From positions 32,001 through 96,000 of the IMG/VR virus record IMGVR_UViG_3300036715_002570: a stretch of 64,000 nt of DNA; one strand, 5' to 3'. A program made the position numbers and the translations under genes. The stretch comes from a virus. Of the stretch, positions 1-36,767 are shown in pieces; positions within the stretch are counted from its first letter, which is position 1; each line of letters begins with the position of its first letter. Under the pieces are notes generated by a model. That model was not told where the DNA came from, searched no databases, and worked only from the letters and a program-made list of their open reading frames with translations.

Positions 1-89
1 ACGTCCAATACCAACTCGCAGAACTGCAGCCATCGGTTTTCCTGATCACGTCAGATAATCGGTACGATCTGGCACAACTATTTGCTTGT

Positions 90-15897: not shown

Positions 15898-16995
15898 ATG
15901 AAGAAGTACCTCGTAGGTGGTGCGGTTCGTGACCTGCTGCTCGGGATCAAGCCGAAGGATCGCGACTGGGTGGTAGTAGGATCCTCTCCTGAGGAGATGC
16001 TCGCACTTGGATACCAGCAGGTAGGAGCATCTTTCCCCGTCTTCATTAAGGATGGTGAAGAATATGCACTGGCGCGTACCGAACGAAAGACGGGCGTTGG
16101 ATACAACGGGTTCGATGTCACGTTCGATCCTTCTGTCACATTGGAGGAGGACCTGATCCGCCGCGACCTGACGATCAACGCGATGGCGCTCGACATCGAT
16201 ACGTACCAACTGATCGATCCGCACGGCGGTCGCAGGGACTTACACAACGGAATCCTTCGCCATACCAGCCTCGCGTTCGCGGAAGATCCCGTCCGTGTTC
16301 TCCGCACAGCTCGGTTCGCTGCTCGGTACCAGTTCTCCGTGGATCCGACAACGATCCGTCTGATGTCCGACGTTGCACATGAACTTGTGCACGTGCCCCA
16401 AGAGCGGATCTGGGCGGAGTTCAAGAAGGGCCTGACGGAAGATACACCTCATCTGATGATGGACGTTCTCAGCCGCTGTGGCGCGTTGTCAACACCTGCG
16501 CTCGAGATCTACAGCCACGCCAATTTGGACATGATCCGGAATCTGTCCCCAACCCATCCAATGCACGTTCGCCTTGGCGCTGTGTTCCGGAACACAGTGG
16601 GTGACGTCAATGCGTGGTCGAAAAAGCTGAACAATGCGAAGATCCCTGCTGCATTGATCAAGATTCTCGTCACGTACCTGCGTGAGTATGACATCCTGTA
16701 CAACTACTGTCTGCAAGATGCGGATACACGCGTTCGGTTGCTTGACCGCCTTCGTGCGTTCTCGGATCCGAACCTGTTGTCACACGTGATGGATTGCATG
16801 ATCAACAACGATCTGATGTACTTCTACGTGTATCGCCCAATCCCGTCGTATCTGACCGGTCAGAAGGCGGCAGCTTTTCGTGATCTCGATACGATTCAAG
16901 CGAACGTTGACAGCGTTGCAATCGCTGCGTCAGTCGATACCAAGTCGATCAAGCAGGCGATTCATGATGCACGCGTTGCGGCATTGAGCAAGTAG
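15898..16995 (+). CDS. cca: tRNA nucleotidyltransferase (CCA-adding enzyme)
   Basis: [12 protein letters not shown]...[47 protein letters not shown]. Confidence 0.95.
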
Positions 16996-31268: not shown

Positions 31269-31389
31269 CACACTCCCTCATCTTGGGAGCACAACCGTCG
31301 AGGACACGCAGACGTTAAAACAGTGGTGGGAGTCCAGTGGAAGCCTGGTACCGAATTGATAAATAGTCCACTAACCTAAGGGGCTATTG

Positions 31390-32352
31390 ATGAAATTCCT
31401 GAAGACTATTGTGGCAGCAGCTCTGTTTGCCATTTCTACAGCACAAGCGTGCACACCCATCACTCTAACAGCTGGCGCTAAAGGCAACAGCATTTGCTGG
31501 GGCTCTGAAACGTGGAATGAAGCTGCGAACAACGGTAAGTTGATGTCGCAGACGCTGAACTTCTACGCTGCAACAACGAATCCGTCAGCACCACTGATCA
31601 TCTACTTCCACCCAAATGGTGGTAGCAGCTATATTGACCAGAAGCAAAACCCAACACTGTACAGCCAGATTGTGCAACCTGCATTGGCTGCTGGTTACGC
31701 TATTGCTTCTGTAGAGTTCCGTCATCCGGTGGACAACGACAACGTACCAAACCGTGTTTCAGATCCACGCGTTCCTCACTGGGACGCCGCCCGAGCAATC
31801 CAGTTCTTGCGTGCTAACGCAACAGCCCTTGGCATTGACAAGCGCAATGTATTCGTGGTGGGTCATTCACGTGGCACACTATCGATGTGGACGGCTATGC
31901 AAGATGACATGGCGATCTCCAATAGCCCCGACGCTATTGCTCGTGAATCAACACGTGTTCGCGCAGTTTGGGCATATCAAGGTCAGACCTCATACAATCC
32001 GGTGGAATTTGCAGAGTGGTTCCTAATCCCGTCTGACCGTGCTCAAGCAGAAACAGGCTTTGAAACGCTGCATCCAAAGTGGCAGCAATTTGGTAGCGCC
32101 GTTGCATCCGTTACCCCCGATGATCCTCCGGTTCACCTACGCTACAAGCAACAGTTCATGCAGGGGTTCATTTCGTATCAAACAATGACGACAAAGTTCA
32201 ACCCTGAACACTATCCTGATTTTGGCGTTCAATTGTGCACGCGGTACACACAAGTGAATAATCGAAATGAGTGTGTTGCAGAGCAGCTAATTCCTGAGAC
32301 AGGTGCATACACGGGAATGATCGACTTTTTCAACAAGTACCTGATCCCTTAA
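31390..32352 (+). CDS. exported alpha/beta hydrolase (esterase/lipase)
   Basis: Signal peptide, IYFHPNGG, GHSRG nucleophile elbow. Confidence 0.8.
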   Translation: MKFLKTIVAAALFAISTAQACTPITLTAGAKGNSICWGSETWNEAANNGKLMSQTLNFYAATTNPSAPLIIYFHPNGGSSYIDQKQNPTLYSQIVQPALAAGYAIASVEFRHPVDNDNVPNRVSDPRVPHWDAARAIQFLRANATALGIDKRNVFVVGHSRGTLSMWTAMQDDMAISNSPDAIARESTRVRAVWAYQGQTSYNPVEFAEWFLIPSDRAQAETGFETLHPKWQQFGSAVASVTPDDPPVHLRYKQQFMQGFISYQTMTTKFNPEHYPDFGVQLCTRYTQVNNRNECVAEQLIPETGAYTGMIDFFNKYLIP

Positions 32353-32391: not shown

Positions 32392-32728
32392 TACGATAAT
32401 GGAATGTCTGCCTATCCATTAACTGTCTCGATCCCGTTTTGGCCGTACAATTTCAGGTTCAACAAAATGACCTGAGGTTCAGTAATGGCATTGATGTTGC
32501 GGCTGATATGACGCATGTGATTGTCACTCAATTCCAACAGTTAGACCCAACACTGTCACGATTGCATATCATTGGTGCTATCAATGGTATGCGTGCTCGC
32601 TTACGTTTGTCGCCAGAAGGGCGTCAAGCTGATCAAGTACGAAATTGAACATAATGGAAGTTCATACATAAGTATACAAGGCCTGGTTGAGTGGTGTTAA
32701 CCAGGAATTTGAAACAAGGAGCACCAAC

Positions 32729-33409
32729 ATGAAGACAATTGTCGAAATCCACTCCGCTGAAGGCGGTGACGACAGCAAGTTGTTTGTTAAGGACCTAGCA
32801 CAAGCATACGGGAAGATGTTCAGCCGTTTTGGCTGAAAGCACCATGTTGTGTTAGATACTTCGGGAGAGGTCCACATAGAAGTAAGTGGCACTGATCTAA
32901 CGCAGCTTAACAATGAACCAGGAGGTCATCGCCTCCAGCGTATTCCACCAACTGAACGCAAGGGTCGCGTCCATTCCTCATCGGTAATGGTTGCCGTAAT
33001 CCGTGTTGATCAATATGCCCAACCTGACTATTCGAAGATTGATCCGTCGGACTTCAAGATTGAATGGTACTCGGGAACAGGTGCAGGTGGACAACATCGC
33101 AACAAACACCAAAACAGCATCCGCTTGACCCATGTTCCTACAGGAGCAATGGTCACATCTCAGTGTCGTAGTCGAGAGAATTCGTACGCTGAGGCAATGC
33201 AAGAATTGATCAAGCGTCTGCAATCGGACGCAAAGTACCGCAGCATTGTGGCACAGTCAATTGAACGCAAGAAGCAGATGGGCTCTGGTATGCGTGGCGA
33301 CAAGGTACGGACGTACCGGTTCCAAGATAACATTGCGACTGATCATCGCACAGAGAAAAAAGTTCCGCTGTCCAAAGTAATGGACGGTAATTTTGATTTG
33401 TTGTGGTAA
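32729..33409 (+). CDS. class I release factor, RF1-like, lacking domain 1, with in-frame TGA at 32834
   Basis: AAGGAG RBS; VEIHSAEGGDDS, GGHRLQRIPPT (PxT), GAGGQHRNK, RTY.F...TDHR; codon 36 is TGA where RF1 has GW. Confidence 0.88.
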
Positions 33410-35034: not shown

Positions 35035-35215
35035 GTGTTTGATCTCCAAATAGGATATTTATGCTAACATTGTTTCTTGATACAGAGTTTTACCGACTTC
35101 GGAAGCCGAATGGAATGCAGCAGTACTACAACATTGACCCGCGCCAACACCATGCGCTCGTTGATGCAAAAGCAAACCACCATGGCTGGTGGCAAGGATA
35201 TCAGGCAGGACTACA

Positions 35216-36172
35216 ATGAATAACACGATTGACAAACTCCATGGCGGTTTATACGGCGCCTTAATTGGTGACGCCGTTGGTGTACCGTATGAGTTCAAGA
35301 CAACTCTACAGATCCCCCACCCCCCAACGATGGTTCCACCACCTAAGTTCAACCGATCGTATCTTGGCGTCCCTCCTGGCACGTGGTCTGATGACGGTGC
35401 GCTGACGCTATGTCTGATGGAATCGTTGTTGAAGGCCGACGACTGGCTGGATACCGACTGGGTGCACGCGTTCGGACACCGGATGTCAAGGTGGCGATAC
35501 GAAGGGTACATGACGCCAGACAACAAGAAGTTTGACATTGGAAACCAGACCTCGGAGGCAATCCGTCTCCTGGAGTTTGGCCTTGATCCACTCGAGCTGA
35601 CGTATACAGAATACGAAAACGGCAACGGCGGCTTGATGCGTGCACTTCCTGTTGTTCTGGCGTTGTGGAAGTCGGAAGATATCGACCTAATCTGCGCCGT
35701 CTCGGACATGCATCACATGGTGTCGCACGGCCATCCAATCTCGTTGATCTGCGGTCAAATCTACGTAATGACAGCGATCATGCTGCTGCGTGGCGATAAG
35801 TTTAACGACGCCTTCTGGGCTGCCGTTGACATTGTTGAAGCTCGGTGTGACGATACCGAATGGCAAGGGCATTTCGCTACTGTCCTTGCAGGGAAAGACG
35901 AAGAGCCTCGCGGCACGGGATACGTTGTTGACACGCTATGGTCGGCACGTTTTGCAGTGCAAAGTTCGCTGATGGGCGATAACACGTTCATGAATGCAAT
36001 CGAACGCGCCATCCTTCTCGGTAACGACACAGACACAACTGCATGCGTGGCAGGTGGATGGGCTGGTATCATCTACGGCTGGAAGGGCATTCCTCAAGAG
36101 TGGCGTGATGGGTTGCGCGGTAAAGACCTCGTTAAGCCAATGGCAGATCGACTGGTGGCACTAAATGACTGA
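35216..36172 (+). CDS. ADP-ribosylglycohydrolase (DraG family)
   Basis: GALIGDAVG.P.EF, WSDDG, GNGGLMR, GNDTDTTACVAG. Confidence 0.92.
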   Translation: MNNTIDKLHGGLYGALIGDAVGVPYEFKTTLQIPHPPTMVPPPKFNRSYLGVPPGTWSDDGALTLCLMESLLKADDWLDTDWVHAFGHRMSRWRYEGYMTPDNKKFDIGNQTSEAIRLLEFGLDPLELTYTEYENGNGGLMRALPVVLALWKSEDIDLICAVSDMHHMVSHGHPISLICGQIYVMTAIMLLRGDKFNDAFWAAVDIVEARCDDTEWQGHFATVLAGKDEEPRGTGYVVDTLWSARFAVQSSLMGDNTFMNAIERAILLGNDTDTTACVAGGWAGIIYGWKGIPQEWRDGLRGKDLVKPMADRLVALND

Positions 36173-36563
36173 ATACGTTAAGCAGGTAATTGTCGTCCGC
36201 AAGGACCTTAAAATGCCGAAGGGCAAGATTGCAGCACATGCTGCCATGGCTCCTCTGCTGAAGATGATGGACAAAGACTTTGGTACCAGTGAAACGGAAG
36301 GTTGGATGCTTCGATTCAAGCACGGAAGCGCTCTCGACAGCTGGTTGAATGGGTCGTACACCAAGGTTTGTCTTGGTGTAGAAGACGAGGAGCAATTGCT
36401 TGCCCTGTTCGCAGCCGCAGAACAGGCAGGCTTGCCGTGTGCTTTGATTCGCGACAACGGCTTGACCGTCTTTAACGGTGTTCCGACGAACACCTGCATT
36501 GCGATTGGTCCTGACTACGAGAGCAAGATCAATTCGATCACGGGACACCTTCCTCTGCTGTAA
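36165..36563 (+). CDS. pth2: peptidyl-tRNA hydrolase, Pth2 type
   Basis: KQVIVVRKDLKM.KGKIAA, IRDNGLT, TCIAIGP, ITGHLPLL. Confidence 0.9.
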   Translation: MTEYVKQVIVVRKDLKMPKGKIAAHAAMAPLLKMMDKDFGTSETEGWMLRFKHGSALDSWLNGSYTKVCLGVEDEEQLLALFAAAEQAGLPCALIRDNGLTVFNGVPTNTCIAIGPDYESKINSITGHLPLL

Positions 36564-36613: not shown

Positions 36614-36703
36614 GCTTCCATAGTTTAGCGGTAAAACCCCCGGCTTATACCCGGTATAGCTCTAGATAAGGGCGCGTCGTAGGTTCGAATCCTACTGGAA
36701 GTA
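36614..36703 (+). tRNA. tRNA-Ile(TAT) with long variable arm
   Basis: GCTTCCA/TGGAAGT; CCGG-CTTATAC-CCGG; extra arm GCTCT-AGATA-AGGGC. Confidence 0.85.
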
Positions 36704-36767
36704 CTTTTTGGAATTATGGGATACAATAGTCCCCGCACATAAATATCTCCATAATTATGGAGATATC

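Follow-up and report, generated by a model that had tools for sequence, protein, structure and literature searches.

A conserved in-frame UGA in the gene for a short RF1-type release factor of large phages

Why should the gene for a protein that ends translation contain a stop codon of its own? The question is raised by a 64,000-nucleotide stretch of viral DNA (the window), which represents positions 32001-96000 of a 150,677-bp IMG/VR viral contig (CheckV completeness 64%; G000 below). A Shine-Dalgarno-like AAGGAG (32716..32721, + strand, as are all features of this gene) is followed 7 nt downstream by an ATG at 32729, which opens a release factor gene of 226 codons that closes with TAA (33407..33409) and is interrupted by a single in-frame TGA at codon 36 (32834..32836), with A as the next base. 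The earlier note on this DNA reported the ribosome-binding site, the start codon, the TGA and a frame open to the PPT and GGQ motifs, and each was found again on re-reading the sequence. Codons 1-35 (32729..32833) specify, from their translation and an AF2 model, strand beta1 and a long helix with the GG tip that contacts the stop codon, and codons 37-226 (32837..33406; 190 codons) encode the remainder of domain 2, the PPT 'anticodon' motif (32945-32953), the GGQ motif (33086-33094) and domain 4.

The prfB gene for RF2 provides the textbook example of translational autoregulation by recoding in release factor genes, and huge phages encode RF1 or RF2 and tmRNAs. Full-text literature searches yielded no account of RF1-like genes, from phages or of the bacterial type, that carry a UGA in frame. 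The neighbours of the gene that were examined provided no functional clue. An alpha/beta-hydrolase/esterase-like gene (BD-FAE, 7e-14) is located directly 5' of it at window 31387-32352 (+), without an obvious translation link. Further downstream is a gene for a Pth2-like peptidyl-tRNA hydrolase (36177-36560, +; PF01981 at 105 bits), the ATG of which adjoins the TAA of an ADP-ribosylglycohydrolase gene (35189-36172), with a tRNA-Ile(UAU) at 36614-36704; an early in-frame stop is absent from the Pth2-like gene of G000 and from its orthologues in the relatives G001-G003.

Conservation of the in-frame TGA

Two scans of viral contigs recovered 155 loci, which represent 100 distinct gene sequences with pairwise protein identities of 44-100% (median 65%). 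All 100 begin with ATG, preceded in 90 by a Shine-Dalgarno-like motif, and all contain exactly one internal stop, which is always TGA and always codon 36. A metagenome scan, using an alignment headed by distant family members, provided 63 further loci with TGA at this column, some only 42-47% identical to the window protein, and the gate is carried by 157 distinct 63-nt contexts (viral and metagenomic), extending down to approximately 42% protein identity, well past what chance would produce. Synonymous sites are saturated (pS ~0.76), and pN/pS values of 0.29 ahead of the stop and 0.34 behind it indicate purifying selection on both halves, so that a conserved in-frame stop is followed by a selected frame, the pattern of programmed read-through. 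The other Trp codons of these genes are TGG (166, compared with 81 gate TGAs), and TAA closes 98 of the 100 family genes, compared with 53% of the 2,893 ORFs in nine family genomes. The viral locus L101, as well as L395, has Leu at the gate column and lacks the stop. Other searches were less productive: blastn of the release factor region against phage records returned zero matches, queries P0128, P0132 and P0137 yielded no useful viral loci, and a degenerate-pattern scan of viral contigs for TGG versus TGA detected just 2 matches where at least 78 were known, so that its zero for TGG is not counted as evidence.

From a lone sequence, several readings in which the TGA is not a gate could not be set aside, namely a pseudogene or sequencing error, genome-wide use of TGA for Trp, selenocysteine, or two separate polypeptides (a 35-aa peptide and a re-initiated piece). 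A TGG-to-TGA mutation or read error, which the earlier note had allowed for, is excluded because TGA is invariant while synonymous sites have reached saturation, and both parts of the gene are conserved under purifying selection. Databases do hold 'full-length' versions of the protein (222-226 aa) with W at the gate, but these come only from contigs of up to approximately 4.7 kb, and long contigs yield 175-191-aa fragments. Since five of the W-bearing proteins are the letter-for-letter code-4 translation of loci whose DNA has TGA, these are gene-caller artefacts. Taken as a group, readings without a gate are considered very improbable.

The genome itself uses TGA freely as a terminator. It is the commonest terminator in G000 (78 of the 163 ORFs with a length of 100 aa or more) and ends 28-53% of ORFs in eight complete relatives. 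The screen for in-frame stops used best-frame tblastn HSPs in which 20 or more residues were aligned on each side of the stop; crude ORF coverage under alternative codes is uninformative alone, since coverage goes up whichever stop is relaxed. When G000 was compared with G001, a complete relative of 350 kb, no other stop came near the release factor TGA, which is aligned in the two genomes, in conservation on both sides (flank identities 0.85 and 0.65). Six more ordered comparisons, among G001-G004, reported this stop alone; it passed the flank threshold only for the G001/G002 pair, and no stop came up in the other four. At position 16599 (minus strand) of G000, outside the window and within G000:C1:16530-17396, a TGA faces Trp in G001 with flanks of 0.6 and 0.55; this region has HSPs on both strands and frames with several stops, and may be conserved non-coding or mis-framed DNA. 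The proposal that the genome is not recoded is thus upheld, and G000 does not belong to the class of recoded phages (code 4, 15 or 25). Recoded phages with suppressor tRNAs likewise combine phage release factor genes and suppressor tRNAs in large genomes, but in those described by Borges et al. in-frame stops occur in 26-71% of genes and the code-change operon is kept in standard code (10.1101/2021.08.26.457843), whereas here the release factor gene is alone in holding a stop and the rest of the genome follows the standard code.

The gate can also change its place. In L393 the Trp column is TGG and a TGA occurs 4 codons later, and in L396 (a 283-kb contig) the column holds Phe and the TGA is 10 codons later; apart from this the two genes are intact, with TAA as the final stop. 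The genes of a separate clade, found in the published huge phages LR756504, LR745206, LR756501 (735 kb) and LR756502, have one or two in-frame TGAs, at approximately columns 38, 43 and 51, and control helicase genes are open for 525-593 aa in all four. The standard code applies in LR756501, where ORFs cover 84.4% of the genome under code 11 and 85.0% with TGA as sense, TGA ends 21% of the ORFs, and TGG occurs at 12.8 per 1000 codons. Such changes of place argue for selection on the gate itself. Selenocysteine is a poor fit, since the gate position varies and the residue is non-catalytic, and the few UCA-anticodon tRNAs described below are ordinary 77-nt molecules, not tRNA-Sec-like. At the level of sequence comparison, the gate is established as real, ancient, selected and specific to the release factor gene, with both halves in one frame. 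Phage-type release factor genes were also seen in two metagenome-assembled genomes, one labelled Rhodospirillales (L442; contig of 244,738 bp, one TGA) and one labelled Bacteroidetes (L445; contig of 154 kb, two TGAs). These are probably jumbo-phage contigs mis-binned with hosts, which, if so, could hint at host range.

An RF1-type product that lacks domain 1

Pfam matches span the stop and comprise the C-terminal part of PCRF (PF03462, 5e-19) and the whole of RF-1 (PF00472, 5e-20). The best NCBIfam model is prfA at 184.7 bits (prfB, 108), with the match beginning at model position 106-114; the score is below the equivalog cut-off of 400 because domain 1 is missing, and the Shine-Dalgarno-led ATG sits immediately 5' of domain 2. 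A profile of the family, compared with solved structures, gave 245 bits for RF1, 152 for RF2 and 82 for PrfH, and placed the TGA column on the conserved RF1 Trp ('kgW'), in agreement with the position assigned in the earlier note.

An AlphaFold (AF2) model from a 44-sequence alignment had a mean pLDDT of 93.3, with a strand at residues 2-9 and a helix at 14-34 (both with pLDDT >94) and W36 at the helix-to-strand junction. By Foldseek, the model has a TM of 0.91 to ribosome-bound RF1 (~2 Å), 0.84 to RF2 and 0.70 to PrfH. In RF1, the GG tip of the long helix of domain 2 reads the first base of the stop codon. Because the model folds the N-terminal piece into an RF1-like domain 2, the 35 codons ahead of the stop belong integrally to the codon-reading domain. 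Residues P73, G120, G121 and Q122 are invariant in the family, P74 and T75 are kept in at least 90%, and the recognition loop is RF1-type throughout (Q70, P73-P74-T75, E76, H-T/S), suggesting specificity for UAA and UAG. The tip of the helix is GG(E/D)D in the family, as opposed to GGDE or GGTE.

Bacterial RF1 (prfA) is therefore the best match in sequence and structure, sharing PxT, GGQ and domains 2-4 with the phage factor. The latter differs in the lack of the ~105-aa domain 1, in its score under the NCBIfam equivalog cut-off, and in the internal UGA of its gene, as prfA genes are not known to be recoded. A likeness to PrfH (RF-H), the RtcB-partnered rescue factor of ~200-230 aa, had also been proposed. 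Absence of domain 1, and with it a length in this range, is indeed common to both, but the resemblance goes no further: the match to the PrfH equivalog TIGR03072 is weak (45.1 bits against a cut-off of 166.65), the scores are those of RF1, the PxT codon-reading motif is retained, whereas PrfH has a non-canonical 'anticodon' motif, and RtcB was not found in the five genomes searched. Each genome examined has one gene with a release factor domain.

The UGA and its probable decoding

The context of the gate is distinctive. Of the 157 contexts, 120 have A directly after the TGA, 19 have G, 18 have C and none has T, whereas T follows 32% of 1,133 ordinary terminal TGAs of the same genomes (chi-square 131, for sequences that are not phylogenetically independent). 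A U at position +4 is a context that lowers read-through (PMC5289835). The leaky context suggested for the window, UGA followed by A, is thus matched across the family, in which the stop at the gate column is always UGA and +4 is never U. In the contexts inspected, a Leu codon after the gate is always CTN and never TTR.

Synonymous variation, corrected for relatedness and codon degeneracy, is lowest in the gene at codons 35-45 (observed/expected 0.48, given for codons 36-42, against 1.04 for the median codon window), with a second dip at codons 55-59. The 90 nt from the TGA fold more stably than shuffled versions in which the synonymous codons of a gene have exchanged places (mean z -1.98; below -2 in 54% of 52 diverse genes); the window gene has a z of -1.46, and a control region -0.47. 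A long imperfect hairpin is predicted at 32846..32906 (+), starting 12 nt after the first TGA base, and overlaps both stretches of synonymous suppression (codons 37-45 and 55-59). A 7-bp hairpin, TTCAGCC/GGCTGAA, with the TGA in its 3' arm, is predicted at 32819..32837 (+) and occurs in only part of the family. RNAalifold detected no consensus structure or covariation in MAFFT, codon-based or two subclade alignments, and the downstream structure is putative, with support from thermodynamics and site conservation.

A second polypeptide started behind the gate would require a start site. The distance to the next in-frame start is 4-148 codons; only 8% of these starts are ATG and 13% follow a Shine-Dalgarno-like motif, and re-initiation after the gate is unsupported.

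Which tRNA might decode the UGA was considered by scanning whole genomes, as a BLAST search of ten genomes with a suppressor tRNA matched mostly ordinary tRNAs. G000 encodes 45 tRNAs, including an atypical tRNA-Trp(CCA), and neither the window nor the full 150.7-kb contig, which is 64% complete, was found to contain a tRNA with a UCA anticodon. The absence of a suppressor tRNA stated in the earlier note accordingly holds for the window and this contig but does not extend to the eight complete relatives, of which six have tRNA(CUA) and one has tRNA(UCA). When LR756501 is included, one or two tRNA(CUA) amber suppressors are present in seven of nine complete genomes, tRNA(UCA) in one (G002, two genes beside the tmRNA) and neither in one, and tRNA-Trp(CCA) is present in eight. 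The suppressor genes are located at 332868-332944 and 344214-344286 in G001, 199793-199869 and 199929-200005 in G002, and 690585-690738 in LR756501.1; the list also includes G003, G004, G008, G011 and G012. No conserved in-frame TAG or TGA was found besides the release factor gate. The UCA tRNA of G002 is 81% identical to a CUA tRNA of G001, which indicates that anticodons are switched within this suppressor lineage.

These tRNAs bear on a further possibility, that the UGA is a timing gate and the factor is made only once a UGA-reading tRNA of the phage is expressed. The paired UCA genes beside the tmRNA in G002, orthologous to the CUA suppressors of relatives, would suit such an arrangement, and the window contig is incomplete. 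CUA (amber) suppressors, however, cannot read UGA. As UCA occurs in one of nine complete genomes, CUA in seven and neither in one, and all nevertheless keep the TGA, a cognate suppressor is not the general key; a UCA tRNA is also absent from the 150 kb available for the window phage. A timing gate is accordingly thought quite unlikely.

Several features of the translation apparatus of these phages were noted in passing. The tRNA-Trp(CCA) of G000 (G000:C1:12190-12262, outside the window) is drawn by ARAGORN with a D stem of only 3 bp and with an A-C mismatch in its 6-bp anticodon stem, a shape that may favour UGA reading, as in the Hirsh D-arm suppressor. A tmRNA is present in all eight complete relatives (G001-G004, G008, G011, G012 and G014; for example, G002 198905-199249), with proteobacterial-style tags such as ANNSVYALAA, ANDESYRVAA and ANDSVFALAA, among others, and SmpB was found only in G003 among G001-G004 searched. 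In G002 and G004 the tmRNA is ~0.5-0.9 kb upstream of the suppressor tRNA. In several genomes, ARAGORN also reported tRNA-like genes in which a 6- or 8-membered loop leaves an 'anticodon' of 2 nt or 4 nt (G000:C1:28362-28432; G001 342827-342896; G003 147932-148005; G004 227532-227606; LR756501.1 204243-204333 and 228902-229090).

The reading favoured here, with moderate confidence and from sequence evidence, is that programmed UGA read-through gates a short RF1-type factor and ties its production to RF2 activity or UGA-decoding capacity; we infer that the stop is read through, that the residue inserted is Trp, that RF2 activity is sensed and that the factor is specific for UAA and UAG. Ribosomes would initiate at the good Shine-Dalgarno sequence and ATG, and most would probably terminate at codon 36, using host RF2. 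A fraction would decode UGA, most likely as Trp via a near-cognate tRNA-Trp(CCA) of the host or the phage or, in the few relatives with a phage tRNA(UCA), by that tRNA, and these ribosomes would complete the 226-aa factor. Read-through is probably enhanced by the weak termination context and by the stable RNA structure that starts ~12 nt downstream. Output of the factor should climb as RF2 capacity drops relative to UGA-decoding tRNA, since UGA is read by RF2 alone. The RF1-type residues (Q, PxT, E, H-T/S) imply that the factor would not read its own UGA, and the loop would then be indirect. One possible logic is load-balancing, in which an extra UAA/UAG terminator spares RF2 its UAA work, in a setting of phage genes that end mostly in TAA and TGA. 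Near-cognate read-through of the two serial TGAs of some huge phages would be very inefficient, which hints at a more efficient route.

Bacterial homologues and the logic of the gate

A scan of cellular genomes detected short RF1-like genes, without domain 1 and with the PPTE motif, in several bacterial groups. These include Myxococcota (among them the complete genomes of Archangium gephyra and Minicystis rosea), Thiobacillus denitrificans DSM 12475, a Hydrogenophilales MAG, Novimethylophilus kurashikiensis, and MAGs of Beijerinckiaceae, Acidobacteriota and Bradymonadia. In 13 bacterial genes (L448, L450, L451, L462, L466, L473, L474, L480, L489, L491, L497, L501 and L515) and the metagenome locus L398, the N-terminal segment ends in Leu and a stop and the remainder continues in the +1 frame. 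The junction is CTT TGA C or CTT TGA G in 12 of the 14 and CTT TAG C in two (Archangium gephyra and L398), and is often preceded by a Shine-Dalgarno-like GGAGGGG or GGGG. The stop of the shift site coincides with the phage gate column in 11 of the 14 and is 10-13 codons later in three Betaproteobacteria. Neither RtcB nor another recognisable partner was found within 1.5 kb of the bacterial short RF1-like genes. In a quick maximum-likelihood tree, the genes with the stop at column 36 form one clade (SH-aLRT 99), the huge-phage genes another (96), and the frameshift genes fall into two or three more groups.

The arrangement in bacteria is that of prfB, in which a +1 frameshift at CUU UGA C (codon 26), with a Shine-Dalgarno-like element, is autoregulatory. 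Both prfB and the phage gene are class-I release factor genes cut early by an RF2-specific UGA, a stop that is almost never another codon, and bacterial homologues of the phage factor hold a prfB-type cassette at the column of the phage gate. The phage gene, by contrast, reads GGC TGA A and stays in frame 0, which would require read-through and not frameshifting, and its gate lacks the CUU slippery codon and the Shine-Dalgarno-like stimulator. The phage gate follows helix alpha5 of domain 2, whereas the prfB site is in domain 1, and the phage product is RF1-type and so should not read its own UGA. In a survey of 8,160 genomes, the prfB stop was TGA in 98.6% and TAG in none, and the RF1 family has been stated in the literature not to have such a frameshift; no description of a frameshifted RF1-family gene was found. 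The suggestion in the earlier note that the full-length factor would be made only with host RF2 impaired is plausible; the evidence for it consists of the exclusive use of an RF2-specific stop in the phages and of the prfB-type cassette at a like place in the bacterial relatives. The TAG at the shift site of two bacterial-type relatives fits a pure RF2 sensor poorly.

Those TAG sites would be tolerable to an omnipotent factor, and raise the possibility of true autoregulation, in which the short factor reads UGA, or all three stops, and ends its own synthesis by the logic of prfB with read-through in place of a frameshift. The coincidence of the phage gate with the bacterial cassettes, the constant use of TGA in phages and the altered GG(E/D)D tip of the helix would all be compatible with this. 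The recognition loop, on the other hand, is of the RF1 type throughout, and the family profile matches RF1 far better than RF2, so that autoregulation is regarded as unlikely. A constitutive attenuator is held to be improbable as well. Here, the UGA would simply keep production of the factor, which would do harm at high levels, constantly low, without sensing; UGA is the leakiest stop, the gene combines a strong Shine-Dalgarno sequence with a presumably low required dosage, and buffering of over-expression by internal stops was proposed by the authors who described giant-virus eRF1. A weak Shine-Dalgarno sequence or promoter would, however, achieve the same more simply, and the exclusive TGA, the re-creation of the gate at other codons and the prfB-type cassette in bacteria speak for a regulatory device.

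To our knowledge, the eRF1 of giant viruses is the only viral parallel. The eRF1-type gene of Mimivirus and Megavirus is expressed by way of a frameshift as well as a read-through (Jeudy et al. 2012, PMC3521657). As in the phages, a virus-encoded termination factor has internal stops in its own mRNA that need recoding, and it is the only recoded gene of the Mimivirus genome. The Mimivirus factor is, however, of the eukaryotic/archaeal type, from a eukaryotic virus and unrelated in sequence, whereas the phage factor is bacterial-type and its gene, which does not involve a frameshift, is interrupted by one in-frame UGA (two in some lineages). In-frame read-through of UGA alone, in the gene for a bacterial-type RF1-like factor, would be a third, different recoding solution, besides those of prfB and giant-virus eRF1.

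The device is widespread, being present in hundreds of jumbo and huge phage contigs, with the largest published phage genome among them, and the gene is systematically mis-annotated, either as a truncated 175-190-aa protein or through a spurious code-4 call. It could provide a natural, tunable UGA read-through element for bacteria. It also draws attention to an unstudied class of short release factors, the bacterial members of which frameshift although RF1-family genes have been thought not to. It is tentatively suggested that the RF1-like factors without domain 1, of bacteria and of jumbo or huge phages, represent an unrecognised class of class-I release factor, the synthesis of which is always wired to termination at UGA. 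If this is true, bacterial members would be expressed via a prfB-like +1 frameshift and phage members via read-through of one or two UGAs, aided by a weak context and a downstream structure. The phage version would then be the first release factor feedback in the bacterial world to operate by read-through, and would be either a cross-sensor that gives UAA/UAG termination under RF2 saturation or, if UGA reading has been acquired, an autoregulator. The finding bears on what the termination factors of phages do and on how phages monitor the termination capacity of their hosts.
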